Source: Antedon mediterranea (taxonomy: Eukaryota; Animalia; Echinodermata). From it: a DNA stretch of 64,000 bases. The stretch is from NCBI RefSeq assembly GCF_964355755.1, contig NC_092679.1, positions 12,197,432 through 12,261,431 of the forward strand, written 5' to 3'. Under the pieces are notes generated by a model, which was not told where the DNA came from, searched no databases, and worked only from the letters and a program-made list of their open reading frames with translations. Positions 9,417 to 40,230 of this stretch are shown here, one piece after another (within the stretch, counting starts at the first letter, position 1; every line of letters starts with the position of its first letter). Position numbers and translations under genes: made by a program.

Positions 9417-9747
9417 ATGGAGGAAGACACCAACAGTGGAAGCGTTACAGGGCGCAAATTGTTTATTTTGTGGTTGGTTTTCTTCTGTTACCTTCTACTT
9501 GGTGGATTAATTTTTAATGTGTTAGAAAAACAAAACGAAGATGAGCAGAGAGAAATAGCAAGACTTGTCAAACATAGTTTTTTGAACAATTACACTTGTT
9601 TAGATTCGGAAGCATTAGAAGAACTGATTGATTCTCTGATGGTTATTCAAAGCAACGGTGTGGATCCACGTGGAAATGCTACATCCCCATCCAAGTGGGA
9701 TTTTACAAGTTCTCTATTCTTTAGTGGAACTGTAGTTACAACTATTG
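9417..9747 (+). CDS. K2P potassium channel (TALK/KCNK16-like), first coding exon: M1, cap and P1 helix up to TI-G
   Basis: Translation includes YLLLGGLIFNVLEK (M1), LNNYTCLD (cap Cys), GVDPRGNATSPSKWDF and FFSGTVVTTIG. It ends ACT ATT G|gtgagt (phase-1 donor at 9748). An upstream acceptor tttgcag at 9361-9367 implies a non-coding 5' exon. Confidence 0.95.
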
Positions 9748-11558
9748 GTGAGTTTGATTCAAATTCAAGTTTTACCATATATTACCATTGCTGAATAATT
9801 TTATTCCATCATTTCTGTGTTGTTGGTTTGTATTTTATTGTTTATTTTTTGGTTTGCATGTCATTGTCAATAATCAATGATGGATTTTATTGAATTATAT
9901 GTATCAGTTATATATTACTTTCAAGTTTGGTTTAATGGAACAAGGTATATATACATAAATTACTTTTTATGTTTAATAAAAACTTTGTTTAAAAAAGTTA
10001 GTTTAAATGCTATTCTAATTATGTGTAAAAATAATGAATCATTTTAAAAATAACTTATTCATTGAAATCATTTAAACAATAGAGATAAAATGCAATAGAA
10101 ACGATGTTATGCTTTTAACATTGTAATTAAGTTTTTTTAATTCCACATAAAATGTTCACCATCCACTGTCATCATATTATTATTATCATATAAGTGATTA
10201 AGAAGTCAAATTTGGTCTCTCTTGCATACTAATCCAAACCCTAATTATATCAGCATTTCTAATCCTGTAGTTACAATCAAAATATATTAATTTAGAATGC
10301 CTATCTATTTCATACCGTATCCTTTATCACTGTATTAGATTGAAATTTCATTATTTACTTTGCCTTTGGGAAATGTCATGATTCAATCTGGTCATGTCAA
10401 CTTCATACTTTACACAGAATTATAACATTTAACACAGAATCTTAAAAGCTGATGTTGATGGAGATCTGTATCTTTTCTTCAGTGTGTATATCATACTCCT
10501 CACTCAATGAATGTTTGCGCAATTTAAAAGCGTCTTTTGATGGGTTGGCATTATTTTGAATGAGAAATATAGGACATAATCAAATTATTAAAGTTTTCAT
10601 GTATATTATTGTCACACAGTATTTACAGTTGCTGTTAGTAAAATATCGAAATTGATACCAAGTGGTACTTGTCCGATACTAGTCTGGGCTCCAGACGGAG
10701 TTTTGTCTTAATATTAGTGAAAATATAAATATTTTTGCACATACTGTATGGCATTTCATACGTATTACTTGAGTTTGGATACTCTGTCTGGGGAAACATG
10801 CACAAGTCACGTGGTTTGACACCAAGAATTCTTGGTGCATAGATTTTCCAGTTGACTAGTTTCAGCCGCATGCGATTGGCTACTCACTCGTACACTGTTT
10901 TAATATTCATATTTTAGAATTTCAAAGACTCAACAACTAAGATGATACGCATGCGCTATGTTACGTTTAGACAATGTGTGGAGACGTACACACGTGTGTA
11001 CTTTTGTACGTTGATGAAAGTTTCTGAAGGCTAGAATTGATTTTATATGCCTAGTAGTCTGGTAAACATTTGATGGGATTTTCTCCAAGAACATGAAAAC
11101 TCTTCTTGATAATGATAGGCTAGCTTCTCCGCAAATCTAACATTGAATGGATTTATTATGCGGAGATTATTTAATTCCCACCCAGACCCTATCCTCCTAG
11201 CCTGTCCTGTCTGTGTGGTGGTGTAGCTCTGTTGTGTGCCGGTGGTGGTATGTACCTTATTGACGTTTTATGGCAGGTCATAGGCCTACGTACGAGTTGA
11301 GTTGGCCTACGAAGGAGGCCTAGACAATTTGGCAAAACAACTTGGCAACACGATTTAATATTTCATCAGTTGTTCATTCTCGATCGTACATTCAGCACTG
11401 TACTGTACTCGATCTTTTTATTTTAAAACAAAATGCCCCATATATCCAAATACGATATGATAGCCTACGTCATTCTTATCGGATGTTTCGGTCTGCAAAT
11501 CAATTTCTATACGTGTTTCACAAGTCTGTATTTTCAGACAAAAAGCAAAACGATGACG

Positions 11559-13244
11559 CAGGGCTGCAAATTAAGGGGTATTTGGTCGCATTTGCGACCT
11601 AATTTTTCTGTTTGCGACTAAAGAAACAGAATAGGTCGCGCATAGCGCGACAAGATCGTCTGCTTGTGCGAGTTGTTTCAAATTGAAGTCGGGTGTGTTT
11701 TCCCTATTTCAAACACTGTGTAATTTAATCTCTCTTAGTAAGTAACAAGGTGGGAAAATTATTATTTAATGTGTTATTTTTGACTGGCGGAGGAGGACCA
11801 ATTTGTACATTACTAAGAAATATATAATATAATAGTTTTTATTCGTAAATATTTCATTCGTGTGTGTTTTTTTACTCTCAACGGCGAATATAAATTTCCC
11901 ACAACGTAAACGTAGAGACACGATCCAACACAATGAACTATGCCAACTAATAAAAATAATATAGCGAACGTCCAGTCGATCCAGAAACATGCAAACAAAA
12001 AGATCGTAAACAATTCATTCTAAATATAGTATCAGAACGTTCAATCGGTCGCTCAAAAAGACTGCCGACAGAAGACCGTAATTAATACAGACCTAGTTTT
12101 TTGGTCACATGTCATGAAACGCGATACTCTGTTTTACCACCACCGCCAAACCTCTCGCATGTTTTTTTTACTCTCGGTACGAGGGGGATGGCTACAAAAC
12201 AGTGTACCTGAATTTTGCGTCACATGAAACGTAATACAGCTCTAAACTGTTCCCACGGTTCGCACGTTTTTCCCCTCCAAATTCTGGTCGGGTCTTTTGT
12301 CGTAATAATAATTTACAAAGGCCTATGTTAAATCTTAACATGGAATATATATTTATTCTACATGTATTTTGTTGGTGTCCTAGCCAAGGTGTTGTTTTTA
12401 TAATTCGCTAAACCAAGGTAGGATTGAATCATGTAGGCCGCTGAAACTCTCTCTGCGTGAGCTGAGGGCCTCGGGCCCGATTTCGTCTCGTCGGCGGATG
12501 TCCTGCCAAATTAGGACAACCGATGTGTAGGGCGGCTACAAAAATTAACGTCTAGGATTTTAATTAGCCAACAATACATGTTTGTTTCCATTGTTTATGC
12601 TCCTAACTAAAGGCGATGACATTGGTGTTTACAAATTACTAACCCTACGAACCACCGTACGATCGACGCGTAGATATTATCATAAAATCGTAGGCATGGC
12701 AACGAACAATATTTTGGAAATTACAGAATATGTTTAGCCATGGAGGAAATAGCGAACAATGACCTACGATCTATTTACGCGTAGGCTACGAAAGGTTACG
12801 CGAAGCAGTAATTTCTTTCTGTACCGTAAAAATAATAATTAATAGATCTTGCGTGAATATAAGTGGCGCATCATCAGGACCAGTGCCTAAATGTGCATAA
12901 CCCAAATTAATTGAATTCTTCAGTGCTGAATTTTTATGTGCTCAGAAATCGATTGAAACAACCTATAATTACTCAAAAATCTCCCCCCCCCCCCTCCAAA
13001 AGCGGGGCCATTGGCGGCCCCCCTGACCCCCAGCCTAAGGTTGTACTGTATTTCATTTTTATACACCCCCCCCCTCCCCCCACTAAACTAAAAACGGATC
13101 TGCGCGGATGGGGTTTGAGGGAAGGGGGTTAGTTGTCGATGAAAAGGTGCTACTAAAAAAATTGGTGATGCTACCAAAAATTATTATGAGCCATCATACA
13201 AATTTGATAGTGCTACCAAGTAAAAAAGTTAATTTGCAGCCCTG
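11559..13244. mobile_element. Non-autonomous hAT-like TIR element
   Basis: Perfect 16-bp TIR CAGGGCTGCAAATTAA / TTAATTTGCAGCCCTG, with subterminal GCGAC and GCTAC repeats. No clean 8-bp TSD was seen. Confidence 0.72.
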
Positions 13245-14536
13245 ACGTGCAAAATGACATAACAAAGACAGTAAAATTAATACAGACTTGGAGCAAGTCT
13301 AGTCCGACACATACAGTACTGTATTAATGAACATTTTAGGATTATTGAAAATTTAGCTTGATTGCACAACATGTGTCCTCAAAATTTAATTGATTGATTT
13401 GTATCATGTGCTGTTGAAGTCCCACTCAGCTGTTGGTAAACATTTTGAGAATTCTGTTTGATGGTGTACCGTAGACTGGTGAATAATCATAATCAAAATC
13501 TATCTATAACTGCAGGTCTACTTCGCAACCAAATCCTGAGTGCCTCCTTTTTGTGAGAATGCCTCCAAATTTATTCAAAATGAAAGTGCAAATGATTATA
13601 TGAATAAAAGTTTTAATTTAAAACAGCAGTTGTATTTAATACAAGACAACTGAATGTACTGTATTCTTTGAAAGCCTTCCATTTTCCTATTCAACTTTGC
13701 TCTGACAAAGGCAGCAATTCAAATAATAAAAAATACTGTTGTTTTTCTTTTGTGACAGACTCTACTGTAGATTACTTTTTAAGATTATTAACATGTGCCT
13801 TCCAAGTTGATCAATTGTTGTGGTTATTTAATGTTGCTCATTAACCAAAGGAATTCATTTATGGTATGAAAAAAAAACAATTAAATTTCATTAAGATTTT
13901 AATTAATATTCACAAGCATTTTAGTAGTGTACTGTAATCCACACACCATACAGTGATGCTTGGTGAATTACAGAAGCTTATGAAACTATTTAACGATCTA
14001 CAAAAGATGTTTTTACTGTTTTAAAAGTAAAATGTAAAATGACTCGTTATAGTCATCCTAAAATGTAATCTACTTTGTCAACAAAAAAAATGTTTCATGT
14101 AAGATTAAAATGCATTAGAAGCAAGTGAATATTTGTACATTGATGAACTGGTAGTGTAACTATAGTAATGCACTTTGTATAAGTACTTCATATTATGTTT
14201 TTCTTGTATTTGCCTATGAAAGATGATAGTGAATGGCTTAGCATTTTCAATCTATAATGGGTTTTATTAAAATTTATATTTTGAATAATAATTCGAAATT
14301 GTTATGTTCATAAACTAGATCTTGAATAATAGCCCCTTTCATACAGAGAGATGTGAAATGGTGGTATTGAGATGATTTGTCCAAGTGATGTCTCTGGTGT
14401 TAGACAACTTTTGGACTTATAGTATATAGTCACATTCCTTTCAGTAGGCCTAATTACTGTCACAGTTTTTGATTTGTGAGAAAGGAATTGCTCTATATGC
14501 CTGTTGATGTAGCATAGTATAACGGATTAAAATCGG

Positions 14537-14809
14537 CAGGACTGTTTAAAGCACCTTGATTGGTCCTAACATTGATCAAGGGCTTCTCTCGTCCAGTGCC
14601 CACCTTGACCAGAGGTCTGAGGCAGATACTAGATGCAGGGGCTGCCATAAGAGTCAGCAATGCTGATTTCAAATGCCTAACGGGACCCCAGCTCCGTATA
14701 CAGCACCCGCTATTCCCAGATGGTCTCCCATCCAAGCTCTAACCAGGCCCAACGTTGCTTAACTTCGGTGATCTGACGAGAACCGGTGTTTCAACGTGGT
14801 AAAGCCGTT
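14537..14809 (-). mobile_element. 5S rRNA-derived SINE (SINE3-type), full-length copy
   Basis: The minus strand begins ACGGCTTTACCACGTTGAAACACCGGTTCTCGTCAGATCACCGAAGTTAAGC...GGATGGGAGACC...GGGAATA (5S-like head, about 14698-14809). A ~160 bp non-5S body follows and is shared with 39428-39704 and 8861-9005. Confidence 0.9.
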
Positions 14810-15363
14810 ACATTAAAGTGGCCATATTTAGCCATAAACTCTGGCTTGTTTTTACTGCAATATTGCTGTAATTTCTGTGTGCAAGGACTTATAATAGCAG
14901 GTACTGTATTTATATGATGAATTACTGCCAGTCATTGTGTGTTCATCCAATACTTTCCATTGTGACATACAAACTAGCTAGATCTTTGAAGTTTGATTAA
15001 CTATTCAATATATCTCGCATTAATTGTTACATCATCACGTTGAATTATTATATTCAGGTAAATGTTTACCCGCTAGTGGGTAAACATAAATCAGTCTAAT
15101 TACTTCGTGTCTGAATCATTAAAGAATGCAAGACAAACAGTCTACAGTATGTCTTCTATTAAATATGGTTTAATTGGCATCTTCAGAGATATATGACTTT
15201 ATTGGTTTGCAATTATTCAACTATATATTATCATCATTGCAAGTTAACTGTGTTTGCAAGGTTTGTTAATAATTGCACACCTAACTTTCTTTTTCAGGCA
15301 CATGACCTACAACATTTCTTTATATACAGTAGACCACTGACCCATTTAACAAAATTATATACA

Positions 15364-18291
15364 CTAGAGGGTGAGCTCGCTTCGCTCACTCCCCCTCTAG
15401 GAAGTGTAGACGATGGTTCTCGGAATGATAATGTTCTCCTTATACATTTTCTGTCGGTTACCATTATTGAAAATGCTTGACATTCGTAAAACTTTCACAG
15501 TGTTTTAGATGATTAATAAAATTTTAAAGTATAGTTTTTATTGTTTGGTAGGGCCCTTTGGGGAGGCGGAGGTCATTTGAGGGAGGTGCTTATTCGAGGG
15601 ATATTATGTTAAATTTTTAGTTTTAATAATATGGTAACATTTGTAATCAAATGAAATCCTCTAATACAGTAGATATGAAAAGTGGTAAAAAAGAATAACA
15701 AATGCTTGGTAAATTGTAGATAACAGTGCGGTGAATTCTACTACAAATAGTATAATTGTGTTATTATAAATATGTGGATGGACGTTTATTAGATAGTTGG
15801 GTTGGGGGGGGGGGGTTTATTATTCAAAGTGATGTTTTATTGGAGAGGCGTTTATTCAAATGAATACCATCCTAATAATTATTAATACATTATTTAATTT
15901 AATCATCTTTTGAAACTGCCGTAATAGAGTGGGCCCAAGAAAGAAGACATTACGGCTTGCAACATGGGCAGACATCTCGGTCCTAACGGGACACAGGAAG
16001 ATAGCTACAGTTATTCCTGCAAGCTTACTCAATAAAACTCAGCTATCGGGATTTCACTCGAAAAATGTCTTATCATCAAATCTCCCTATGTAATTTTATA
16101 ATACTATTCCCCACAATATATTCTGATTCTTTATGACGTATATTTAATTTGATCTTTATTAATTTGCAGTATAATTTAACTACCGTACCTTCACACACGC
16201 GTGGTGGTATGTTTTAAAATAAACAAAAAACTGAAATCCACTCCTACTATCTGATTTTTATTTCGTCTTCCAAAGGGACACTGTATTGATTGATGGAAAG
16301 TGCCTGTTTCCAGTCACCTTTAGGGTCAAATCTATTATTTTAACTGCTCCCTTGTGTTTAAAAGAGAGAAAATATTTGAAACCAGGTTGTTGCAAGGTGA
16401 ACTTATCTGAGGGTCTGTTTCTGCTGCATAACGCATTTTAACCGGTTATTTTAAAATAGATTAAAAATAGATAACAATAACAAGACCGCGTTTCTGCTCA
16501 ATTTGTGCTCCGAAATAACCGGTTAAATCTATGGGTGGTCGTCGAGCAAAACGTCATCATTACCCAAAATGCAATACACTCAGACGGAAGTAGTAAGTTG
16601 GCTGTTTGTTTACATCGACGTCAGTACACGGTAGTACACACGTGTGTGATATCGCCATCTTAAACATGTTAACATAATAAAATGTTGTCTCCAGGTCTAC
16701 AAGTTTTGTTTTTTGTAAAGCCTACTTACCATCGGTAATAAAATTAATTCTCATGGCGCCTTCAATAACATGGGGAGGGTCGTGCAGCGCCCGATCGCCT
16801 AGGATAATTTTTATCTAGCCTAATTCCTCAACAAAGGCGATATGACACACGGCCCTTCCCACGTGAACGACTGTTGTCTTTCGCGAGCGCGGTCCTACAA
16901 AAAACTAAACGGAAACAAAAACGAGACTTAGAATGTTGCAATACCTACCAAACGAGAGTAGATAATTGTTAATTAATTATGAAACCCTACCTTTTATAGC
17001 AAAAATCGTCCGAATTTATGTTAAAAACGACGAGTTTAGCCACAAAAACTTAATCAAACGAGAGTATCCAAGTCATAGAATATCGCACGCACATAGTGCC
17101 TTTAATAGAATAATGAGTATTAAACATTGTTTCGTATATTTATGTACTAACATAAATAATAACACATTTCTATGCTTAATAAAATCATATTTAATATATT
17201 ATCAAAGGCTCTTATAACCTTTGTTTTCGGTCGATATGATGTTTTTCTAAAAAATTATATGTAAAACGATCAAAGTAAGATTGTTCATTGTTCTCGTATT
17301 AAAGGCACTAAGGGCGTGCCATAAATACGCTCATTTGGATTAAGTTTTTGTTGCTAAATTCATTGTTTATAACATAAATTCGGATGATTTTTGCTATAAA
17401 ATGTGGGTTTTCATAATTAATTAACCATTATCTACTCTCGTTTGGTAGGTATTTGCAACATTCTGAGTCCCTTTTGTTTCCGTTTTGGTGTTTATATAGG
17501 ACCATCCATACCCTTCGCGAGCGTGTACTAACGCCTCAAATTGCTTAGCTTGGGTAGTCCCTGGAACTCCACCCCAAATTCCTCTTTTACTTTCGCAAAA
17601 ATGCTCTTATTTATTATTTGTGATTCTTTTCTATTGCCTGCCATCCTTCCCCGTACTTTCTCTCCCCCCACAACTGAATAACATATCTTGTGATTTCATT
17701 CATCCACATGTTCACTTCTTCGTTTGACTGTCAAAACCACGAGGAAAACACACATCGTATGCGACGGTATCTGACCCGGGGTCACAACTGTCAATCAAAT
17801 AACAGTTATTTCGTGTTGCAGCTAAGAATTGCTCAGCGATAACCGGTTAAACAGCGTTCTAACACCGATTTAAATTGGTGTTTTTAACCGGTTATTTTGC
17901 GCTGCCTTTTAACCGGTTACCACAAATTTGTCCTGTTTCTGCTGCCAAGAAAATGGAGTTAATTTATTCACACCGATTTTAATTTATTCACACCGATTGT
18001 AACCGGTTATTTTGTATGCAGCAGAAACAGGCCCTTAAACCCGGAAATTACTTTCACTGGGAAGAATTGAAATCTAATGTTGAAATCATAAATGTTGTTA
18101 AAAAACTCTTTATAATATCTTCCTAAGATATAAATATGGAACAATAGCGTCGGCGTGAACACTAATGTTATCAAATCTACGTTTCGCGGTACATCTCGGA
18201 TAGATAAGGTAGGTATCCAAGGCGGAGATTTGTACCGAAGTTTTTGCATTGTGCTCGCCAATGTCAGAATTAACCATAATTTATATATAGA
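15364..18291 (-). mobile_element. Non-autonomous Helitron, family 1, interrupted by a nested TIR element
   Basis: Reverse complement of 43089-44410 in two parts (15364-16410 and 18035-18291). TC...CTAG termini are intact. Confidence 0.9.
16411..18034. mobile_element. Non-autonomous PIF/Harbinger-like TIR element nested in a Helitron
   Basis: TIRs GGG(T/C)CTGTTTCTGCTGCATA, flanked by TGA / TTA where the uninterrupted Helitron copies have a single TTA (3-bp TSD, one mismatch). Repeated subterminal AACCGGTT palindromes. Confidence 0.82.
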
Positions 18292-18421
18292 TACTAGTAT
18301 ATATAAATCTAAAGGCAAATTACTGAAAAAATGACAATGCTGTGGGTATCAGTGGCTGGATCTCAATGGAGATACAAAAAAATAGCTAATTCAAAACGAT
18401 AAATTAAAACAGCCAGAAAAG

Positions 18422-18463
18422 TTAGCAGAGCTTTCGGGCAACACTAGCCCTTCATCAGTGCAA
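18422..18463 (-). ncRNA. Minimal type I hammerhead ribozyme motif (Penelope/retrozyme-type)
   Basis: Minus strand TTGCA-CTGATGA-A-GGGC-TAGTGTT-GCCC-GAA-AGCT-C-TGC: complete core, 4-bp stem II, palindromic short stem III and stem I GCA/TGC. Confidence 0.72.
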
Positions 18464-18699
18464 GTATACTAGTATATATATATACTATATTATTGCTTAT
18501 CAAAGTTATTAAGTTTTGTTACAGTATACCCTTCTAGCAAAAGATATTTTTAATAATTTTTTATTGTCATTTAAAAAAATTTATTTTACAAAATTTCATA
18601 CGCATCCAACATTCATACTGTACACGAGCAACTCGCCAATTACAAGATTACAAGATGGATAAACTATTTGATAATTTATCGTACAAATAAAAAGTAATG

Positions 18700-18832
18700 T
18701 AAGTCTCATTTGAGGCTTAGGGAGTGGAATTGAAAGAGTCGTGAGTTTAAACCCTGGCAGTAGGCCATGATTGAACCCTAGACATTGGGATTGGAAGGCA
18801 AGCATGTTAACCACCAAGCTACAGCGCCGCTC
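18700..18832 (-). mobile_element. tRNA-derived SINE head (degenerate)
   Basis: Minus strand GCGCTGTAGCTTGGTGGTTAACATGCTTGCCTTCCAATCC...GGGTTCAATC contains A and B boxes. Confidence 0.6.
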
Positions 18833-19090
18833 CACTACTACCTTGCACATGAAGGAAGATTTTCTCATAAGCCCTTTGTTTGTGTTTATTGTAATGCAAT
18901 AAATATTGGAACATGCAAATATTAGTAATAATATCCACCCAGTGAATCTGTCAATAATTCCTAAGTGGCTTCATGTTTAATAGCTGTTTCTGAGTTAATA
19001 TTGTTTGAATTGGTATCAAAGTGCATAATTGAGACAAGAAAGGGCACAGGGTTCATTATGAGTGTTTTTTGAGAACATTAACAAACTTAA

Positions 19091-19219
19091 AGCTCTGTCT
19101 ACACTATCAAAAAAAGTATGATGTGCCCAATGTGTTAGTGATATGATATCATTGTGTCCATATACTGTATGGGCACATCACATTCTTTGGTCACAAAGTT
19201 TGATAGAGTAGACAGAGCC
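19091..19219. mobile_element. Small Harbinger/Tourist-like MITE
   Basis: TAA|AGCTCTGTCTACACTATCAAA...TTTGATAGAGTAGACAGAGCC|TAA. Related copies at about 318-424, 28670-28838 and 62525-62648. Confidence 0.8.
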
Positions 19220-21623
19220 TAATAACAAATGTAGTGAGCATTATGGGACAAAGTTATTTGAATCTGACAGGTATGCAAAGACTTTGAGACCTGTCTGTTT
19301 CAAAGCAAGATTTTATTTCCATTATCTTTTGGATTAAGTTACTGTATGGTACATATAAAGTATAGTTTAAAAAAGAGTGTCTTCTTTCCTTGGCTCCGTA
19401 TAATCTAACTTTAATTTCCTCACTTTCCAGTTAACTCAAAACCATTTTATAATTTATACATGCTTTTAATTGTGATGGTTGTGATGAGTAAGAGTAATGA
19501 TTTCCAGCCATCAAACGGCGTATCACGGTAAAAGACTTTAAATAATGAATTAATTGTTGTGAACAGTATAAAGGGTTGTGGCAAGGGCCTTACTATACTT
19601 GTGTTTGAAGCGATCTAGAGAACAGGGAAGCCCATATCAAAATGTATTGTTATATACATTTGGGAACACTTTCCTGTGAAACTACAAGGGGCCATGTATA
19701 ATATTTAACACTACAGTCAACCCCTAATAATAGTTGACTATTCTTGCAAGTTGTCTACTTAGCCAACATGTACAGCCTTTCCTAAAGCTTGACATTACTT
19801 TCTGGCTGTTGATTTTAGTTATTCTTGCTTATTTACTGTGTAAAGCATTATTGTTTAATTTAAATTTAAGTGATCCTATTTCAAGAAGTGTTTTGTTTTC
19901 CAAATTTTTTCTTACCACAGAAAAGAGTTTATGGTTCATTAAATATAGTTACAGTATATCGATTACACTTGCACAACACAATTTTTTCAGTAATTTGTCT
20001 TTTTATATAATAATTTAAGTTGTAATACTTTATCAACAATAAGGACCTGGAGTAGTAAGAATTTCAGCTTCATATGTAGACTGATTTCAATCCAAAAAAT
20101 GAAATGTTGGTACTTTAATCTAACAAACTTTATACTGTACATTATAAGGTTCATGATTAAAGCTTAAAAATATTTAAAAGTATAATATTTTAAGAATAAG
20201 AATCAACTTTATCTTTTAATTGTGTATCTGTTTGTTTTATATATGTGGTTGGTTGCATGACATTTTTCATTTTACACACCTTCACTTTGATAAATTAAGC
20301 ATGATAATTGCATGAAAACACATGAAAGCTGTTATGTTGTTTGGTGTTTCTTCATTGAAAGCGGCCTACTTTTTATTGTTGTGGCATCTTGGAACATTTT
20401 CATTCTACTGTTTTGTCCAACCTGGTGAAAGAACGTCATTGTATTGCTAATCTTTAATGTCTTCCAAAAACAGGTAAGGTAAACATTCTATTTATAATTT
20501 ATATTGTAGTATTTATTAGTATCTTCAGACTTTGCCATTGTTAAAATGAAACAGACCACAGTGTTATGGTGTGACAGCATAGGGTGCGACAAATTTTGTG
20601 TCTGAGTAGTCACAGCTTTCACAAATTTCGGTGTACAAGATTAGTGTAGGACAATGATGTAATTCAGTGTCTTATTTTAATTTAGTACCTTATTCTAATT
20701 CAGCGTTTTGCGCTAATTAAAAATCTCGTGCTAATTCATAGTCTTCCAATACTTTAAAATCTTGCTATATCAAACTTGCTCTATATCAGCGTTTTGCGAT
20801 GAGCAATTTTACTACGCAGGTTTCAAAGGCTTTCAGAAAAGCACAGCCAGCTTTGGCATTCCAAATCAAGAGGAAAGTAGATGGATATTCATTGTGATCA
20901 CTATACAAGTGTTGTTACTCTGCAGCTTAACACTATATTTTTATTAGAATTTGATCATGCATAACGTCATACGCTAATATACCATAACTGTGGTATGAAC
21001 AAACTATCTTGTACACTAAATTTCTTCCGCATTAAAATGTTGAATGAAATAATTATTTCAATAAATTTTATCCAAAAATACCTTTTGGTGATTTGCAAGT
21101 CTGAACATCTAATTTGTATTTTTTTGAAAAATACCATTGTACCTCCCCTAATAATCAGATACCCTGTTGTGTGCGAAAAAAAATGTCAGCTTTACTGAAG
21201 GCTGCCGCTTAAATTATTAAAAAGGTTTAGCCTTTTAAATGAGAATTATGGAAGCTGTCCACTAAATACAAGAGATTTTCAACCAGTTGTCATATCTATG
21301 ACAACATTCACTTCTATTCTATTTGGGATTCTAGTTAATATTGTCGTTGGTATTATTCAATCTTTAATTTTGGAATTTATTTTTGGTCAATAGAAAATAA
21401 CTTATTAATATTAACAACAAATTGACTATTAGTACAATATTACATTCTCTCAACTTATACATTTACTGGTGAAGATTACATACCGGTATGCATGATATTA
21501 TATACCCTTGTTATAGTCAAAACTAAAATCGTGAATAACAAAAGCATAGGCCTATATGCTTTATTAATTTATTACCCATGTGCATCCAAAATACATTAAT
21601 GTTTTCCTTTTATTTGTTTGCAG

Positions 21624-22282
21624 GTTATGGCCATGGATCTCCAAAAACTGAAGAGGGTCAAATTATCTGCGTTTTGTATGCTTTAATTGGCATTCCATTC
21701 ACCGGCTGGTTGTTGAGCGTAGTTGGCGATTTCTATCACAGTAGATTTCATGTCATATGGTCATTTCTCGAACGGGTTATTCGTAAACATCTTTCAAAAC
21801 ACTTATGTCGGCCATGCGCAGTTGTTATAATACTGTTGGCTTGCTATTTCTTCTTGTTGATCATTCCTGCATTTGTTTTTATGTTTCTTGAAGGATGGAG
21901 TTTTCATATAGCTCATTATTATTCATTTATTACTCTTACAACTATTGGTTTTGGTGATTATGTCGCTGCAACAGCAGAAGTCTTAAATGAAGAATGGAAG
22001 GAAATGCTTTATGAAATATGCCTTGTTATTTGGTATACATTTGGTCTTGGATATTTATCGATTATTATCACAGGAATCGGTAGAAAAGAAAAGAAAATTG
22101 CGAGAAAGATAGGATTAGAAATCAAACAAAGGTCACAGAAAATTGATTTACAATTGGATGAATTACGAAAAAGAAGAACAATGAGAAAAGGAAAGGATAA
22201 ACCTGTTGAAGTTTATAAATGTGAAGAGAATGATAATACGATATTTACCATGAGTGGTCAGAGTGGAAACATGGTGTTGTAG
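21624..22282 (+). CDS. K2P channel 3' module A (single exon): P1 filter end, M2, M3, P2, M4, C-tail; 329 aa when joined to exon 9417-9747
   Basis: Acceptor tttgtttgcag|GT TAT GGC completes TIGYG. It continues YALIGIP, EGWSF, FITLTTIGFGDYV, WYTFGL and ends at TAG 22280-22282. Confidence 0.95.
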
Positions 22283-23157
22283 TATTCATTGATGCTTACA
22301 AGGTTTATTGATTGCCTTCACTGAACGAGAAAAAAAGTGATATATTTGCTGTGCCTTACTACTGATTATAGTTTTTTCTTATTTTTAAAGATGTCGTATT
22401 ATTCGTCAAATGTAAATCAAAACTTAAAAGAGCCATTATTTTAGTTTTAATAAGAAATAAACACAAATAATGATTTCACTTTAAAGGAAAAAATAAAATA
22501 TACTCTGAAAAATTGATTGAAATTGATCTCAAGATAATTGATGGACAAACTAATGCTAAGGAAAGAATAAATAATAAATTCAGACAAAATAAGTAAGATT
22601 ATATTGCATGATAATGCATATAACAATGCCACTATTATGCCACTACTATGTCACTATTGTGTCAAAATGCAATGTCATAATTATGTCACAATGCAATCTT
22701 ACTATTTGAATGCAGATAATAAAACATTAGAAAATGTTTTTTTTTTACATTTTAACACATTGTTCTTTTGATATTGCTTTCTTTTTTTAAACTGCATATA
22801 ACTATAGCAATGAATATACTATTTCATAATGCATTATTTGTTGAATGGCATGTGTTGAACTATACCACCAATATAATACTGTTAACCCACTTTGAAATAT
22901 TTATTACGCTTCACTACCTATAACCCATATTACACTTATTATATTTTACCACCTAATATGTTGCTTTTGCACATTATTTTACTAGCTATGAAGGTCTTGC
23001 TTTGTACGTAAGTTCAATAGGCCTAAATGAAGATAGTGAATACCAGTTCAATTCTATGTGATACAGATTTGGATTTTGATTTTACCTATGAATTGGAACT
23101 TAATTCAATTCAACTTATCGGCAGTGATAGGAGCTTTACCAAAAATCAATCTGAACA

Positions 23158-28838: not shown

Positions 28839-28912
28839 ATGATTCGATAAACAAATATAGCAAGATTTTGTAGCTTGAAGATTTTGTTACAGATAGTTTT
28901 AAAATAGCTTAA

Positions 28913-29159
28913 AGGACAACTTGAACGATTTTTACGATTTATTTACAGTGTTTACTAGAAATTTTTGTGATTTGCCAGACTTTGCCAGAAAACTAATTAC
29001 GTAAATTTTGCGATGCACCTGTGACATCACAGCAATTTACAGCGACGGCTGTACAGCGACCGCGTGCAGCGATATCCTTAATCTCGCGATGGTTCTGAAA
29101 TCAAATGTACATCCCTAATACGTTGTTAAATTAAATATGGTCCTCGGTCAAGTTGTCCT
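28913..29159. mobile_element. Kolobok-like MITE (second family)
   Basis: TTAA|AGGACAACTTGA...TCAAGTTGTCCT|TTAA. Confidence 0.8.
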
Positions 29160-30067
29160 TTAAAGTATTGCAGTAATATTACAGACAATTATGTTTACAT
29201 GGAATAAACAAATTGCAATTGCAAAAAGACCACTATGCAAAAAATCATTATTTTAATAATATAACAATTTTAACAATTTAATTGCAATTCAAAATATTGA
29301 GAAAACCTGTCTTTTGCCAATGAGTTAAGAATATCAATTTTCATCAATTTAATATTATAGATTAATAAATTAATCTTTATGTAGAAGGAATTAAGAAACA
29401 ATGGTAATTTGGTTGTCATGGATACAATATCAAACTTGACATGTTTTTTTATCGTAATAATAAACACGTCACGCTTCATTTGTTATTAATATTTAATGTT
29501 AAAAATTCAGTACTGAACTACATACGGTAGGCCTACAGGAATATACAGAATATTCTTTGCGTTGAGAGTTTCTGGTTAAAACTATGGGAGGTGTCACCAC
29601 AATAGTGATGAAACACATTGAATCACATAAAGCTTTTCCACCAATCACAAGAGTTATATGTACTGACATAAGATCTAAAAATGTAGGCTATATAATAACA
29701 ATTTGCAGAAATTTCAAGGTTTTATATACTTCATTCCAAATTATGCTCCAGAATTGTGTTAATTATTTTAGACCTAATAAACTAAAAGTAAGATTTTTAT
29801 CATTCTTTCTTTCTTGTAATATTCATACACAATGTAGGCCATTATGTATAGACATACTAATAGTTTGATTTCCTAAACAACTCTCAGACTTTACTAACCT
29901 ATGCTTACAACAGTTTGGTCTAATGATGAAACAAGGTTGTACTCTGCAATCACATCTCACAATGAATAGATATAGTACCCCCTTCGCACCAAAATTTATC
30001 AAAAGTAAGGGGTGGGCTTATACCAGAATTAGTATAGTAATATAGTGGTATACAGTTGAAACTCAAC

Positions 30068-30235
30068 ATTCTTTAAATTTCCTATTCTTTAAATTTCCTA
30101 TACTTTAAATTTCCTATTCTTTAAATTTCCTATTTAAATTTCCTATTCTTTAAATTTCCTATTTAGATTTCCTATTCTTTAAATGTCCTATTCTCTAATG
30201 TCCTCATTCTCTAAATGTCCTCATTCTAAATTTCA
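30068..30235. repeat. ~17-bp minisatellite
   Basis: Unit TTCTTTAAATTTCCTAT with decaying variants. Confidence 0.85.
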
Positions 30236-31438
30236 ATTTCATTTTTAAATGAATAGGAAATGTCCTATTCATTTAATATCTTTTTAAAGCATTTTTTATA
30301 TTAATACTAGTTTAGAGTATTGATTTTTAAATACTGTTTGGAAATAGAAAATGATTGTTATTTCGTGACAACAGAATAATTATGGCTTTCCATTCCACAT
30401 GTCAAATGTGTACTGTATACACTTTTTATCATCAGCAGATGTTCAAATTTCTATTATCATTTCCTGAATTAATATGGTAACATTCATTTTCGACTATTTG
30501 TTTTAATCTGAGTGTTTTATGAAATCACAATATTCTCCAGATTATTATGAATTTTGTTATAAATATTCTGGTCTTGTGCCTGTAATTGCTTTATAATAGA
30601 CTATAATCAACTGCATTAATATGCAACCCCTTTAAAAAAAATTATATCTAGACAATAATTGTAATTCATTTTCAATATTTTATTATTTGATAACCAGAAT
30701 ATCATTTCTATTTAATTGGTAGATTTTGTATCAAATTAGCATTGGTAATTAAAAAAAAAGTTTGATTGTAAATAGGAAGTTTAATGGTTCCATTGAACAA
30801 CAATTGTCCACAACAGTAGCACCTATGATACATAGTACAGTATGGTATCACAATCTAGTATCACAATTAGGCCTACTGTATTTAGTTTCATATTCATAAA
30901 ACAGACAAATTTCTTGTTTCTGCCTCAAAATAAAATATTTATTGTACGAGTACTTTCGACCATAGGTCATCATCAGGTATTGATAGAATATTGGTACGAA
31001 TACATATAGAAAAAGGTTTTTCATATTCATCACTATTGAAAATTATTATTATCAATCATGTTATGTATTATGCATTTCTTTTCTAAATTTAAATACAAAC
31101 AATTGTATAGTTTAATTTAATTATAATGTAGGTTTATTTGGGTATTTGAATTGTGTGTGTTTTAAGTATTTATAATAACAGTTGGTTTTGAAATCAGTAA
31201 TATTAATATGATTGCTGATAAGCTGCTTATACCAAAATAAATTGTAAACTACTATATATTTTATTATAAACATTGTGTAAATTATACAGTATATGTATGC
31301 AATTGAAAAAATTTTAAATGTTATTAATAAATTTATGTATTATATTTTTTATTCCGCAATAAATTTGATAATGTAACGTACAGTAGAACAATTACAGAAA
31401 AAGCAAATGTAGAATGAGTGGTGTTTTTTTCTATTTAA

Positions 31439-31951
31439 AGATGTATTGTCCCTTGAAACACAAAAAAAATGAAGGTCAAAATATTCTAAATTTAAAGTGG
31501 CCATATCAAAGTAATATTAAAGTTATTCACTTTAAGTCGAAAATTAGAGCCAAAAACAACAAGTTTACGTAATTAACAGGTAAATTAATTTGATTACAAA
31601 TCGTCGCGAGCGAAAGTAAACAAAGATTTCAAACTACGGGTATGCATTATGCCTGATGCTAATTAGGATTGTTTACAACTCGTCACGGTTGAGAAGAAGT
31701 TTTATGATTATGCATACAAAGTAGCCAAACAACCGCGTTGCATTATGAGATATGTTTTGATCGAAAACTTTGACTAATTCCAGTCAAAGTTATTTTTTGA
31801 ACAAAAAAACGTCTGTATTTCAGCTAAATTTTTTTTGGACTAATTTTTTGGTGAAAGTTAATAACTATTATGATACTTCAAAATGACCCACTTTTTTTCG
31901 AAATCTTTTTTTTGAAATTTTTTTGGAATTAGTCAAAGGGACAATACATCT
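31439..31951. mobile_element. Kolobok-like MITE
   Basis: TTAA|AGATGTATTGTCCC...GGGACAATACATCT|TTAA. Confidence 0.82.
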
Positions 31952-32919
31952 TTAAGACTCTCAATAGAAAACACTGTCATGAAGCACTGTTCACAAAATT
32001 GAAATGCATATGTTGAACATTTTCATTTCACACATTATCCCACACTTTTCACCCTTGATACCCGCATTGTCATTAAATGTAGAGTGGTTCAGGATCAAAC
32101 AACAGAGCTAAAGTCTTTACCAGAAGGTCCACTTTATAATGTTACAAAAAATATAACTATACTCACACCATGAGTTCCATGTTTGTAGATTCACTGATTT
32201 TGTAGTAATACAAAATCCTGACATCAGGCAGGATTTGAACCCACGTTCCTGAATTGCTTCTGAGAATTAACAGTATAGATCAACGATTATTAGTATTAGT
32301 AGTAGTATTATTAGTTAGTTGTCTAATATCAATCAATCAATATTTGCTTTAATTGTTAAAGTTGTGTATTAAAAATTCAATATATAAATTATACACTGTA
32401 AAGTCTTTATTGTTTTTTCTTGTTATATTGTATCATTACAATATATTTGAATTAAAGTGACAAAAAAAGGTCATAATAATAATATTAATATTGATTTAAA
32501 TCAACACTTTTTTAACAGAAGCACACATGCGTAGATGGTGCAGCCATACTAATTATAAAATGTTAACACAATTACTTGGAAACTATAAAAAAACAATAGA
32601 AAATACTAGTTTTGCAACAAAAATAGTAGTAGGTAAATTTATGGGCCCTTGACCTACTCCATAGGTCTGAACCAGGGAAAGATTAGTAGAAGCCACCTCT
32701 TACGACACTGATCTTTCGTTCGTTATGACAGCTCAAGGTACAATATTAGTGAACGACGCTTATGATACGAAAGTCATCAACGATTTTGACCTCTAACCAA
32801 TCAAATTTACTCCTGCATACCAGATGTTTGCCCAAATCGGTGACACTTCAGTTTCAAACTTTATTACTGACAGTTGCTTCTAAACGTTTGAATTAATTAA
32901 TAATTACAAAAAATATAAA

Positions 32920-33402
32920 CGTCGTAGTGCTGTAACATTACATGTACTTTACTATTTCAATCGACTATGACAATAACAGTTTCAACAAAGTATTAAATCG
33001 CAAATGTTTTACTGTGTTTAGTGGTATATTATTTATAAAACATGAAAACAAATATATTGTTACTGAGTGGATAAAGAATATAATTTGTTCCTCTTTGCAC
33101 CCATCCTCTTCCCCATTCCTCAACCCTAATGTTACATACAAAACACAAATTGGGTTTGTTTAAATTAGACTCAACAAATTTGGACTCATTTTGTGACAAG
33201 TTTCTCTTTTGGAAGTAATTCCCAGAGTGCTAATTTTAGTTGACTACATAAATCACCGTGTCTATTCCTTCCTGTAAACGACATGTATCATAGTCCTGCG
33301 GTACGTAAATTTGTAATCGCCAGTTTTTTTACGCTGAAATTACTGTGTATTCAAGAAACATCTGTGGGCACAACCTAGATGGTAAGCGAGCAAACCATCT
33401 AG
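32920..33402 (+). mobile_element. 5'-truncated, diverged Helitron family 2 copy
   Basis: Reverse complement of 35758-36550 without the LINE insert. It ends CTAGATGGTAAGCGAGCAAACCATCTAG|T. Confidence 0.78.
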
Positions 33403-33849
33403 TTCAACTAAATTCACCTCGCCAGCATGAGAAGGGCTGTGGCTCAACTAACGCATTTCTCACCGTTGTCAGCTCTTGTGTTTCACACAAACGTAAAAAA
33501 TACTGACATTTTCTATTTCAATACTAGTTTACACAATTCATTGCAGTAAGATCACGTTGAAGTTTGTGCAATTCAAAATACAATGTAACTTACTACAAAT
33601 TAAAAGGAAATGTTAAACATCGCTTCACCTGACCCACAAACCTTACACTTATTTTTTCCAAGTGGTAAAGTGTTTGAATGGAATTTAAATTTTAAACTTG
33701 AGCCATAAAAATAGGTAAGGTTCTAGGCCAGGTAACTCTTTTATCAAAGAATAATCAAGCAAAGATGATTTTCTTACTACTTCTTGTTTCCAAAAAGTAG
33801 TATATGATTGTTTAATTGTATTTTCAAATGGCTTGACCCAGTTTATATC

Positions 33850-35330
33850 AAACTCAGTACCTGCACATAATATATCATTAAGAATGGCATTGAAATCAAA
33901 CTAATATAATCACAAGTTTTTTCAAATTTCTTAATAAATTGGTACCTTGAATTATAATTCTTAAGTCTAATAATTGTATTTGATATGAGTTTTGGCCAAC
34001 AATTCATTTCCATACACATAATATTTCTTATATATTTTGCTTTAAAAATATCCTGGGTATACTTTAATTTGTTTGCCAACCTAGATCACCATTTTTTGCA
34101 GTGGGTCTACTCGCTTTAAGTATTGTTTGCACAATTTGTAATTGGTATGTTGTTAGTATTTGTATTACACATACAGCACATGCATAGTTAATAGTCGGAA
34201 GGCCGATCCTCCATATACAAACGATCAAAATTGTTGAGTCTATCTAAATCTAGTCTAGATTTAATGTACGCAATGATCCTATTACCCTTTTTGATAACTT
34301 GATTGAATGTGGAAATTGTCTTTTAGATTTCTAGAAATGTTTACACCAATTTACTTATTATATGTGTCAACTTCAGATATAAAAGTATCCCCCAATTTCC
34401 AAAGTTTTTCACTATTCAAATTCTGCCTATTATCAAAACATTTGACTTTTCACTATTAAAATTAAATTTCCATTTATTAGCAAATACGGATACTAAATCT
34501 AACATTTTATTAAATTCTTTTTCACTAACTGCTAAAAGTACGATATCGTCAGCCAAAAAAAATGCTACCCATGGAGATATCGTGTATGCGCACACCTAAC
34601 GCGTGTTCTCGTAATAAGTTAGTGAGTTTGTTCATTTTTTTGCAAAACAAGGATGGGGAAAAGACCCTTGCTTAACAACTTCTTCTATCGTATATTTTGG
34701 TGTATAAGTAGCATATTTGACACGCAAATTTAACCTCTAAATTAAGGGTGCATCTTACACCGAACATAAATGCTTCACCGCACAATTGTACACTGACACC
34801 TCGTTAGCTAGGCCTAAGGCTTTAAGGTAAGACACAAAAGACTGTGTCACCAAATCTTACTTGCCCCTTAACATTGTCATATAGGCTACTTATAATATTC
34901 CATAATCTACTACGAATTCATATATTCCATATTTCCATTAGCAATCCATACGCTATCAAATGCTTTTTTATGTCAAGGCATGCTAAGGAAGTCTTCTTGC
35001 CTTCAGCAAGTCAGAGCATTATTTTTTTCTAAGAAGTCGGAAACTGTGTAATGTACAACAACTCTATTTTTGAAACGCAAAGATGTTAAAGTTATTTAGT
35101 TAACACCCTTTTTATATATTGGTACAACAATGCTACTATTCCATTCCGACGGTACCTTTTCAAGACTCACAATTCTTTTGAATATGGATAAAATTAGTCT
35201 ATTTAAAATTGGCCCACCGTTTTTTAGTAATTTATTTGATAGATTGTCAGAGCCAGCAGATTTGTTGTTTTTTGATTAGTAGATAGCAGATTCCACTATA
35301 TCTAATGTGAGTTTAATGTCAACGACATAT
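33850..35330 (-). mobile_element. Degraded LINE reverse transcriptase remnant (RTE/RTE-X-like), interrupted
   Basis: The minus strand reads KNNKSAGSDNLSNKLLKNGG...VPSEWNSSIVVPIYKKG (about 35330-35105) and FLADDIVLLA...NKWKFNFNSEKSNVL (about 34560-34430), with stops and frameshifts. Lower boundary approximate. Confidence 0.75.
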
Positions 35331-35757
35331 ATATGCATCTTGGCATGACAAACAACATAAATTTTAAAGTTTTTAAGTAATGTGAACAAAAAAGTTTAGA
35401 TTCGTGAAAAAGCATGAGCCTCATGCCAAATCCTTGAGACGTGTATGAACAGTATTATAATCCCATGTCTAATCACTAAACCTCATGGAGACATTTTGTA
35501 CTATTATGTTTGGACCTATGACTAAATAGATTTATTTTACACTTACAGAAAATGACAGAAAATGTTTCAAATTTATCGATGTTCAATATTTTCATCTTCA
35601 CGGTCATCAATGAGTAGATTAATTATTGGTTCATCATTGATGTTTTAAATAATTGCTTTTTTGTCATTTTGATTGCTGTTGTCTTTTATGTCAACAATAG
35701 GGAATTCCCCTAAAACTAGTCAATACAAAGAGGGCAGCATTACTAAAATTGGGAAGA

Positions 35758-37465
35758 CTAGATGGTACGCTCACTTCGCTCGCGTACCATCTAGGTCGTG
35801 CCCACAGATGGTTCGCGAATACATAATAATTTCAGCGTTAAAAAACTGGCGATTTCAAATGTACGTACCGCAGGACAATAATACATGCCTACAGGAACGA
35901 ATAAATAGACACTGTGATTTATGTACTCAACTAAAATTAGCACCATGGGAATTACTTCCGAAAGAGAAATTAATTGTTTAAGTCAAATTTAAACAAACTT
36001 AATTTGTGTTTTGTATGTAACATTAGGGTTGAGGGATGGGGAAGAGGATGGGTGCAAAGAGGAACAATTTTTAAATATTATTCTTTATCCATTTAGTAAC
36101 GAAATATTAATTGAACTTATTCAACCTTATGTTCCTAAGCGGTCTCGGAGATCTAGATCTGAGTCTCTTCTTGCCCATATATTTCATCCTTCCACTAAGT
36201 TTTATGGAAATCGTTCATTTTCTTCGGCATCCGTTTCTCTATGGAATGCGTTGCCTATTGAAATCCGTCAGGCTACTTCCACCAGTGTCTTCAAATCTCT
36301 CCTCAAAACCCACTTTTTAATTTGTAAATTTCTAAATTGTTCTGTCTTTGTAAAGCGCATTGAGGCTTTCAGCATAATGCGCTATATCAAGTACCAGTTA
36401 TTATTATTATTATTATTATTGTTTTCATGTTTTACAAATAATATACCACTAAACACAGTAAAACATTGCGATGTAATACTTTGTTGAAACTATCACCGTC
36501 CTAGTCGATTGAAATAGTACAGTACATGTAACGATACATCACTACGACGTGTATATGTTTATATAATGTAAAACAATTTGTGAAAACCACCTCTATTCGG
36601 GAAAATCATAAATTCGATTTAATCGTCAATAAATATTAAATTATCTAACTCAACTTAATTAGTAGGCCTAATGGTTTTCAATTGTTTCTTAGAGCCAATT
36701 CATACTTAAGTTGGTTCCTACCCTACCCACCAAAGTTGTTCTGCGTTTAGGGCATGTGATGTACCGTAGGCCTATCCTCTACTGGTTTTACAACGCTACT
36801 CATGCCAGTGAGGGAAGGGTGATGATGTGGGTGGTTTAACTGCAATAATAAAGATTTTATACATAATATACAGCGAGTGAAAACGCTAGCTCTTTATCCG
36901 TTTAAAAAAAATTTATATCGAACCTCTGCAGCACAAATTGAAAAAAAAAATGGATCGAATATCTGTTATGAGTATACCGTACTTGCCTTTACGACGCCTG
37001 AGGAAATAGACACTTGTGGAACAGAGATTGGAATGTTCCATTCATCGCAAATCAATACATTTGTATAAACGTATATTAAATCTATCAAAATAGTATTTTT
37101 TAAAGAAAATCGGCCTGTCTTCAACATTATGATGCTGTACTCGAGCTGTTCAACCGGTTTTCAGCCATTAAAAACAATTATCGTAGGAGGAGATAGGAAA
37201 ATGCGAAGCATCCTCGTATATTATCGTCTGCGGGTATTTTTCAAGACGGACATCCATTAGACAGTGTATACCACGATCGAAAAACACCCCTATTTGGGGC
37301 AAATCGTTGAACCTAAATTCGTTTTAATCGTCAATAACTAATTATCGAACTCAATTTAATTAGTAAACAGGGTTACATCAGGCAACTTTATATACCATCG
37401 AGTAAACATTCTAGAAATAACGCGCGATTTACCGAATTTTGCCCTTACGTAAATTTATATATAGA
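35758..37465 (-). mobile_element. Non-autonomous Helitron, family 2 (full length, carries a LINE-tail insertion)
   Basis: The minus strand starts A|TCTATATATAAATTTACG at 37465 and ends with the hairpin GATGGTACGCGAGCGAAGTGAGCGTACCATC + TAG|T at 35758. Confidence 0.8.
36112..36420 (+). mobile_element. L2/CR1-group LINE 3' fragment inserted in the Helitron
   Basis: Translates as PYVPKRSRRS...YGNRSFSSASVSLWNALPIEIR...FKSLLKTH (typical ORF2 C-terminus), followed by the AAGCGCATT...AATGCGCTAT stem and a (TTA)n tail. It is absent from the sister copy at 32920-33402. Confidence 0.85.
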
Positions 37466-37610
37466 TATCAGCTCCTACTGTACAGGCCTCATCATATCTT
37501 GGGACGGTAAATTAATTGTCTTGTATAGGATACAAGATGCAATTTCAAAGGCCAAGTAATTCCAATGACCTTGTGACCATCTTGCTAGGATGTAGTTAAA
37601 TAATTCATTA

Positions 37611-38300
37611 TTTTTTACCTCCGCCAAGGAGGTATATTTAATCGGTAGCGTGTGTTTGTTTGTTTGTTTGTTTGTTTGTTAGCAGGATTACTCAAAAAGT
37701 AATTAAAAGATCTTTACCAAAATGAATAGACAGATAGATATGTGGTCAAGGACCATTCCATTAAATTTTTGGACCATTTGGGACCACAGTCCCAATTCTG
37801 GACCACTTTTTAGTATACTTTTTCAGACCTGCTAGTGTTAAAAGATAGGACAGAATTTTTCAAAAGCCGCAAGCAGTCTTAAAGTAACAAGTAAACTGAA
37901 ATTGCATTTTTTCAAGAACTACTTGTCCAAAAAACTTCATTTTTTAACAAGAGGCAAGAGTTATAATGTGTGATTTGTAATTTTAAAACATAATTTGATT
38001 TAATGTTCATGTCTTTTGATGCGAGTAGTTTAAAAAACTTATTTCTTTTCAAATTCACTCGTTTGATTTTCGCGTTGCTGTTCTATTGTTAGTCAACTGA
38101 AGCTATTGTTAATTGAAAGGCTTGTTACATAACCATTACACCAAACTCGCATACACATGCTTGTAATGAAATTAGCCTAAATCACAAACAGCATTAAGAC
38201 CCACACAAATATATATATATTTTTTTTTTACCGGAGAAATCTTATGTAGAAGAATTTTACAGTAGGCGGAGGTATCCACTCTCGGAGTGGCTTTCTAGTT
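37611..38300 (+). mobile_element. Helentron-associated non-autonomous element (HINE/DINE-like)
   Basis: T-run, ACCTCCGCC sub-TIR, (GTTT)n microsatellite, 3' GGCGGAGGT inverted partner, CACTC/GAGTG stem-loop and CTAGTT end. Confidence 0.78.
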
Positions 38301-38669
38301 ATTTAAGCAATACATTATTAAATCAACATATTTTTTAATTCAATTTTGTAATAATTTATTTTTATAAACACTTCCTATTTAAATTTCTTCTTAATTTGTT
38401 AGGGCTATGTATGACATTTATGCTTTCATTTTGTATATAATTCTATTTCCTGTGGTTTTGTTTGGAATTATATTTGTTCGATATTAGAAAACAATTGTCA
38501 GGAAAACTGATGTGTGAAAAAATTACTTTGGATTGCGTCCTTGTTTTGCATTTTCGTGAAATGAATCTTTATACAATAGCAGTCATGTTTTTAATAATCA
38601 ATTACTTATAATAATAATATATCGTTTCATTCATTTTACATAATATATGTTTTTTTTAATTATTCAAAG

Positions 38670-38996
38670 GTTATGGCAAAATCACACCAGCTTCTCGGTC
38701 GGGTCAACAGTTCTGCATTTGCTACGCCCTCATCGGTATTCCTCTTTGCGGCTTTGTCTTGGCTGCTCTGGGAGAACGAATCAAGAACCGTTCCTTGAAA
38801 TTTAAGGAGCATTGCCAGAAGAGGTTCAAGAAAGCAGATGTGTTCTATATGGCCATGATTTGCATCAGTGGGTTTTTCATATTCTTCCTGATTCCTTCGG
38901 TGGTATTTTCTTACTTTGAGGGATGGTCGTACCACATTTCCTTTTACTACACCTTCATTACTCTCAGTACCATAGGATTTGGTGATTATGTTGCAG
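38670..38996 (+). CDS. K2P channel 3' module B, first exon: P1 filter end, M2, M3, P2
   Basis: Acceptor ttattcaaag|GT TAT GGC AAA gives (G)YGKITPASRSGQQFCICYALIGIP...EGWSY...FITLSTIGFGDYVAG. Donor G|gtaat at 38997 (phase 1). Confidence 0.93.
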
Positions 38997-39427
38997 GTAA
39001 TAGTTTTTATTTTAACAATCTATAGAATACCACCATCTATTCATTCAATACTTATTTCCAATGTTGACTAAAGAAATACAATACATACTGTAAATAGAAA
39101 GGACATATTTTCCGAAGCCTGAATAATAAAATAAATATGGCATGGAACAGGCTAATATAAGGACAATAGAGTGGAAACTGTGTCCTGCCTAATATATTAT
39201 GGAAAATACTTGAAACTTCCAACACAATTGGTATAACATGGATGAGAATGGCACAAAACAATTGGAGTCAAATTGGAGAGGCCTTTTCACCCTGCAGCTT
39301 GTTGAAAATGGCTAGAAATGATAATGAAGATGATAATGACAATTTTTATTTTTTTATATTTATTTTTATTTTATTCAATCGAAACCAACAGCGATAATTA
39401 TCGCCACTAACAGGTTTGATACAAACA

Positions 39428-39704
39428 AAGCCAGGACTGTTTAAAGCACCTTGATTGGTCCTAACATTGATCAAGGGCTTCTCTTGTCCAGTGCCCACCT
39501 TGACCAGAGGTCTGAGGCAGATACTAGATGTAGGGGCTGCCATAATAGTCAGCAGTGCTGACTTCAAATGCCTAACGGGACCCCAGCTCCATATACAGCA
39601 CCCGTTATTCCCAGATGGTCTCCCATCCAAGCTCTAACCAGGCCCAACGTCGCTTAACCCCGGTGATCTGACGAGAACCGGTGTTTCAACGTGGTAAAGC
39701 CGTA
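39428..39704 (-). mobile_element. 5S rRNA-derived SINE, second full-length copy (in the K2P module B intron)
   Basis: Near-identical to 14537-14809 over both head and body. Confidence 0.9.
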
Positions 39705-39856
39705 TGACAATATTGACATCAAGCAATTATTTTATTGTACACAATATATAGACATATTTCTGTTGTATTTTTAAAAAGTGCATGTTTGTGTGGATTTAAT
39801 TTTACTATAGTTTTACTGTCAACATTTATATTGAAATGTTCATTGATTTTTTTCAG

Positions 39857-40230
39857 GATCTAATTCTGACAAAAACTACAATGTTTTTTACCGCATTGCC
39901 ATTTATGTTTGGATTCTCTTCGGCTTAGTTTACTTCATTCTCCTCCTTGGTCATGTTTCCGATTTGTTGTCAAGTGCCGGTAAAAAGGTAAAAAGGAAAA
40001 CGTTATCGATTCGAGGGGTTAAACAGAAACACAAAAAAAATGAGAATAGACAACCAACTAGACAAACAAATGAAGAAATCTCAGATGTTGAAGAAATGTC
40101 TCTACAACAAATTAATGAGAGTAATTTGAAGACGGAAGCAGAGATTAATAATTCTGAGAGTGACGTAGAGGTAAAATCTGAGAAATTACCTGAACAGGAA
40201 TATGATGCAGAAATGGAAATGGTTATTTAA
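39857..40230 (+). CDS. K2P channel 3' module B, last exon: M4 and acidic C-tail
   Basis: Acceptor ttttttcag|GA TCT AAT gives (G)SNSDKNYNVFYRIAIYVWILFGLVYFILLLGHVSDLLS..., open to TAA at 40228-40230. Phase matches the preceding exon. Confidence 0.92.

Follow-up and report, generated by a model that had tools for sequence, protein, structure and literature searches.

We describe a two-pore-domain potassium (K2P) channel gene of the crinoid Antedon mediterranea, located in a 64,000-nucleotide stretch of contig NC_092679.1 (positions 12,197,432 to 12,261,431, hereafter the window), in which one shared front exon is, in our reading, spliced to either of two old paralogous channel bodies, A and B, whose products are predicted to respond in opposite ways to outside pH. 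We give this reading as a whole a probability of about 0.6, and regard its structural component, a single front joined to either of two bodies, as close to certain. The modular gene is real, already annotated and apparently undescribed in papers: the literature searched, which included few subscription papers, contained no account of this gene and none of a K2P gene with alternative bodies.

The shared first coding exon occupies positions 9368..9747 of the plus strand, with coding sequence from 9417, and encodes the first helix (M1), the cap with Cys61 and pore helix 1; it ends in phase 1, one base into the first glycine of the filter motif TIGYG. Body A is an intronless terminal exon (21624..22282, plus strand; PF07885, E 1.5e-17) encoding the rest of the first filter, M2, M3, the second pore loop (P2), M4 and the tail. 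Body B is divided between two plus-strand exons, the first (38670..38996; PF07885, E 1e-16) carrying the rest of filter 1, M2, M3 and P2, and the second (39857..40230) M4 and the tail, so that its intron is placed just after the second filter, where A has none; the loose contig end behind 38997 equals the window from 39858 onward. Either body supplies M2 to M4, the second pore loop and the tail, or about two thirds of the subunit. The splice sites all follow the GT-AG rule: the donors after 9747 (GTGAGT) and 38996 are GT, AG acceptors precede 21624, 38670 and 39857, and the acceptor AG of the shared exon lies at 9366-9367. The DNA of the window is AT-rich and contains no N or gaps. Joining the front to A yields a stop-free product of 329 amino acids (aa), letter for letter the RefSeq model P0001, and joining it to B a stop-free product of 343 aa, equal to model P0002. 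The original prediction of a single M1-cap-P1 exon and two intact bodies was exact in coordinates and frames.

Both products are predicted, from sequence, to be K2P subunits with two pore loops, four helices and a cap. PF07885 is found in both bodies, the filter motifs TIGYG and TIGFG are intact in both products, alignments of some 250 residues link them to KCNK10 (E 4e-60 for B, 2e-51 for A), and Cys61, between M1 and P1, aligns to the cap cysteine of KCNK10 and KCNK2. The splice inside the selectivity filter, to which the original prediction drew attention, is real and not unusual. In loci L001-L004, four unrelated K2P loci, all five channel fronts stop in this codon and are followed by a GT or GC donor, and one of these loci (L003, 6913-11087) contains a tandem pair of complete K2P genes, both made of two exons that meet in the filter codon, one of the pair using a GC donor. 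A filter-codon intron is general in K2P channels, although no paper on its conservation was found in the literature searched. The filter splice is thus an ordinary K2P intron and a ready-made joint between front and body. The shared-front layout was present in none of the 4 loci that a metagenome scan yielded from 168 candidate stretches, and an atlas search with body A returned only generic Ion_trans_2 clusters.

Evidence for the joints comes from sequencing runs. Five runs hold the shared exon, none of them recorded as RNA; we classed X1 and X4 as RNA-like, their contigs stopping at splice sites and carrying the next exon's letters, and X2, X3 and X5 as DNA-like, their contigs crossing exon borders. 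Runs X2 and X5 were flagged as possible sources of the window DNA itself. A 756-nt contig of run X1 on B opens with 21 letters equal to positions 9726-9746, which are unique in the window, and proceeds from 38997 into the second B exon, as does a contig of run X4. The front contig of run X1 ends 8 letters beyond the donor, A and B sharing exactly their first 8 letters, and the contig of this run on A has 21 extra letters upstream of 21623. These contig ends fit a fork in the assembly graph with both exits used. One front with two mutually exclusive terminal bodies, as originally proposed, is therefore upheld by the RNA-like B contig, by the front contig that stops where A and B diverge and by RefSeq isoforms in two crinoids; of the two proposed junctions, 9747>38670 is seen directly in one RNA-like contig, and 9747>21624 is inferred from contig ends and the RefSeq X2 model. 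Contig depth cannot rank the isoforms. Among runs the shared exon also shows allele differences between 9403 and 9639, two silent and two altering residues 53 and 75.

RNA-like contigs begin at 9367 and carry 625 and 83 further letters upstream of the shared exon. Because untranslated exon sequence lies upstream of 9368, the exon is the first coding exon and not, as first supposed, the first exon of the transcript; its coding part to 9747 stands. At the other end, the 3' untranslated region of A (22283..22527, plus strand) extends at least to 22527, the position reached by record 7 of run X1, and AATAAA/ATTAAA hexamers follow A at 22456 and 22492, with more farther on. Since A is an intronless last exon with such hexamers behind it, a transcript spliced into A would probably be cleaved at these poly(A) signals and lose B, and one that skips A would probably carry B, in the manner of alternative last exons.

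No second front was detected between the modules or elsewhere in the window, in agreement with the original prediction. The best tblastn match of the exon-1 peptide outside the shared exon has an E-value of 1.6, and a profile built from 34 non-Antedon fronts has its sole match at 9453-9746 (independent E-value 2e-36; next best 1.6). A profile from 41 bodies matched only A and the two exons of B. Fifteen acceptor-like sites could restore G-Y/F/L-G, and long channel frames follow only from 21624 and 38670. By tblastn, splice-site scan and profiles alike, B has no upstream exon of its own inside the window. Sequencing depth shows no sign of a collapsed second front: in run X5 it stands at 257 over the front, 277 over the A region and 263 over B, an evenness that speaks weakly against collapse.

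The same arrangement is annotated in two crinoids under automatic KCNK16-like names, which carry no comment on age, mutual exclusivity or charge swap. RefSeq lists XP_071961769/70 as isoform X1 (front and B) and XP_071961771 as isoform X2 (front and A) for A. mediterranea, and XP_033109133/43 (X1) and XP_033109157 (X2), with the same two body types, for Anneissia japonica; the two isoforms of each species share their first 113 aa. Antedon and Anneissia are 76% identical in A, 74.5% in B and 65.5% in the front, which implies that both bodies are constrained at least as strongly as the front. Identity between A and B is 37-41%, and their tails are unrelated in the alignment.

The predicted functional difference centres on one alignment column. 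In TALK1, R233 is the alkali sensor, and the R233E mutant has reversed pH gating, being activated by acid, and Ca2+/Mg2+ inhibit it by way of D94 (PMC9168622). The pocket around R233 is called a common gate-control centre in PMC9168622, and PMC9520024 numbers the TALK1 sensor R242, also noting R233; the available text of PMC3026807 yielded no acidic-substitution data. Aligned to R233 of mammalian KCNK16, Antedon A has Glu241 and Antedon B has Arg232, so that the basic sensor at the start of M4, a trait of the TALK subfamily, is present in B and absent from A. Across our alignment the column holds Asp or Glu in 13/13 A rows and Lys or Arg in all 12 B rows with letters there (Saccoglossus B being truncated), and it is acidic in 0/17 other rows, or in none of the 29 non-A rows with letters. 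The shared exon carries D95, S98 and F101, which align to TALK1 D94, S97 and F100, and the Asp and Ser partners of the pocket are kept in 7/7 aligned A-type proteins. A histidine following GYG in Antedon A was considered as a pH sensor and ruled out, Anneissia A having Lys there.

Taken with the TALK1 R233E reversal, an acidic column in A and a basic one in B predict opposite pH gating. By analogy with TALK1, the pH pocket would draw its pore-helix Asp and Ser from the shared exon, and the M4 residue that decides which way gating runs (Glu in A, Arg in B) would come from the body: A would be opened by acid and blocked by Ca2+/Mg2+, and B would be opened by alkali. On this analogy the two products probably differ in pH or divalent sensitivity, and fully opposite gating is predicted at slightly below even odds. 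With identical caps, A and B might also pair into heterodimers whose pH dependence would be mixed. The A clade seems to be nature's counterpart of the engineered TALK1 R233E mutant, so that the TALK1 gating model could be tested on it directly; it is also a candidate for acid and calcium sensing in marine calcifiers. In Amphiura, the fronts of two B-only genes (P0027 and P0145) have lost the pore-helix Asp, replaced by Glu and Gly, as would be expected if it is chiefly A that needs the pocket.

The two bodies are ancient, as judged from trees of 43 body rows and 35 front rows, hand-picked from about 290 fetched proteins and labelled A or B from BLAST scores and motifs before the trees were built. 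Thirteen A-type bodies, from crinoids, starfish, an urchin, a brittle star and the hemichordates Saccoglossus and Ptychodera, fall into a single ambulacrarian clade of their own (support 99/97); B bodies lie in a fork with TALK, TREK-type and invertebrate rows. Lineage-wise clades of A and B bodies are rejected for crinoids (p-AU 0.009), starfish (4e-5) and hemichordates (3e-5). The duplication put forward originally is therefore neither recent nor confined to crinoids. Fronts behave otherwise. In the front tree, the bootstrap of which had not fully settled, starfish A- and B-gene fronts group at 100/100 and four of five hemichordate front rows at 92/86 (all five at 68/53); a tree uniting the A-gene fronts in one clade is rejected (p-AU 0.0015). 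Hence in starfish and Ptychodera fronts group by lineage and bodies by type. Between A and B genes, front identity is 65% and body identity 37% in Asterias rubens, and 71% and 32% in Ptychodera. A mixture-model front tree of 22 rows retains the grouping of the Asterias A and B fronts (99/91). In Saccoglossus the same front opens two models, of which one reads front-A-B and the other has that B alone behind the front, and in Lytechinus two B models are without a front; the shared-front reading explains such odd concatenated or front-less gene models.

We favour, by a modest preference, a shared-front state ancestral to echinoderms and hemichordates, which separated more than 500 million years ago. 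The front-A-B gene would then predate that split and have been kept in crinoids and probably in Saccoglossus, and starfish and Ptychodera would later have duplicated the front, giving each body its own gene. The layout itself may have arisen either by duplication of a body or by loss of one gene's front. The most extended form of this account, a single gene maintained since the common ancestor as a splice-set pH polarity switch, combining alkali-opened subunits, acid-opened Ca/Mg-blocked subunits and a mixed heterodimer on one cap and repeatedly split elsewhere, we consider doubtful. The family is also a clear candidate for isoforms having become paralogs on several occasions.

Several observations weigh against parts of the reading given here, and they bear on three alternatives. 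It is very improbable that the layout is an artefact, with a B front collapsed or lost in assembly, or with separate genes and a front-to-B joint reflecting read-through noise or a near-identical front. That joint occurs in one of the two RNA-like runs, the X4 contig covering only 38898-38997, and consists of 22 shared-exon letters in one contig rather than in long reads; X1 and X4 are not on record as RNA, the front-to-A joint is an inferred one, and the RefSeq isoforms are computed models that may rest on the same reads. The window nevertheless yielded no second front, the front and both bodies have similar DNA depth, the independent Anneissia genome gives the same isoform pair, and B is conserved as strongly as A. 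A less improbable alternative, which we rate at roughly one chance in three, accepts both isoforms and denies that the acidic residue of A is a reversed pH sensor, the bodies differing mainly in their tails, in trafficking or in TREK-like lipid or stretch gating. The best solved-structure matches of both isoforms are KCNK10/KCNK2, ahead of TASK2, and the tails of A and B are unrelated. TREK-1 and TREK-2 carry Lys at the R233 column, so that a basic residue is no proof of alkali gating. TALK1 L114, part of the gating network, is matched by Gly in Antedon A, and this position varies across species in A. Membership in the TALK subfamily is a possibility, and the pH gating of A and B is a sequence-based prediction. 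Opposing this alternative, the acidic residue is kept in every A row across two phyla and in none of the 29 others, its Asp/Ser partners are present in every A-type protein of the seven aligned, and the pocket is regarded as a common centre of gate control (PMC9168622).

The remaining alternative concerns history and is, in our estimation, unlikely: A and B were once whole tandem genes, crinoids and Saccoglossus each lost the B front independently, and the likeness of fronts in starfish and Ptychodera reflects gene conversion. In starfish, a brittle star and Ptychodera, A and B are indeed distinct genes, each behind its own front, those of Ptychodera on contigs of equal size, and type C, the sister group of A in the body tree (99/93), is a whole gene with its own front. 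In the mixture-model tree the starfish fronts keep a support of no more than 86/57, and those of Amphiura fail to group (18% of bootstrap trees). B bodies, which sit among TALK/TREK-like channels, do not separate from outgroups as a resolved clade, and the Saccoglossus evidence consists of two protein models, each truncated within B. However, independent loss needs two fusions in the same order together with conversion that affected the front alone. In Asterias, moreover, the A and B genes lie on different scaffolds (13.5 and 33.8 Mb in A. rubens, 15.8 and 38.0 Mb in A. amurensis), and their fronts group at 98/85 and 99/91, excluding the Patiria A front.

Among other features of the window, twelve copies of a 32-nt tandem unit lie at 40232-40614, directly 3' of the B stop codon. 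Minus-strand matches to 5S rRNA occur at 14696-14812 and, in the B intron, at 39590-39707 (80 and 76 bits), both within a 272-nt dispersed repeat that is probably a 5S-derived short repeat element. Open reading frames with DUF7869 (48189-51936, minus strand; E 2e-30 and 3e-28), probably belonging to a mobile element, are flanked by long direct repeats at 43088-44419 and 52632-53961, spaced 9.5 kb apart, and adjoined by an inverted/tandem 175-nt unit at 47026-47548. A Slu7-like fragment (PF11708, E 3e-20) at 63273-63581 includes a 60-nt unit repeated three times.

The Antedon products share the capped subunit with four helices and two pores of the vertebrate TALK1, TALK2 and TASK2 (KCNK16/17/5) and TREK channels, which come, unlike them, from separate genes. 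Drosophila Shaker, with its alternative 3' ends, offers an analogy. TALK subunits form heterodimers, and the TALK1 splice variants mentioned include forms without M4 and not a second full body (PMC9520024); an acidic residue at the sensor column is known from vertebrate TALK channels only in the engineered R233E mutant (PMC9168622). Isoforms of C. elegans twk-40 differ only by upstream exons (PMC9049526). The alternative filter exons of invertebrate NALCN (PMC3557258) are likewise ancient, change pore function and were kept into non-chordate deuterostomes, but NALCN swaps single short exons, and Antedon swaps about two thirds of the subunit, with three helices and a whole pore loop, while its filters stay K+-type. 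Separation of isoforms after duplication, by which an ancestral two-isoform gene was resolved into separate genes in several lineages, is documented for vertebrate exons (PMC4494069) and for fungal SKI7/HBS1 (PMC3597508); KCN and potassium are absent from the main text of PMC4494069, and a K2P case is not reported in the literature searched. K2P diversity is usually ascribed to separate genes and heterodimers; in Antedon, splicing exchanges most of the subunit and leaves the cap and first pore helix unchanged, so that nature has made the chimeras with which to ask which half of the channel sets gating.

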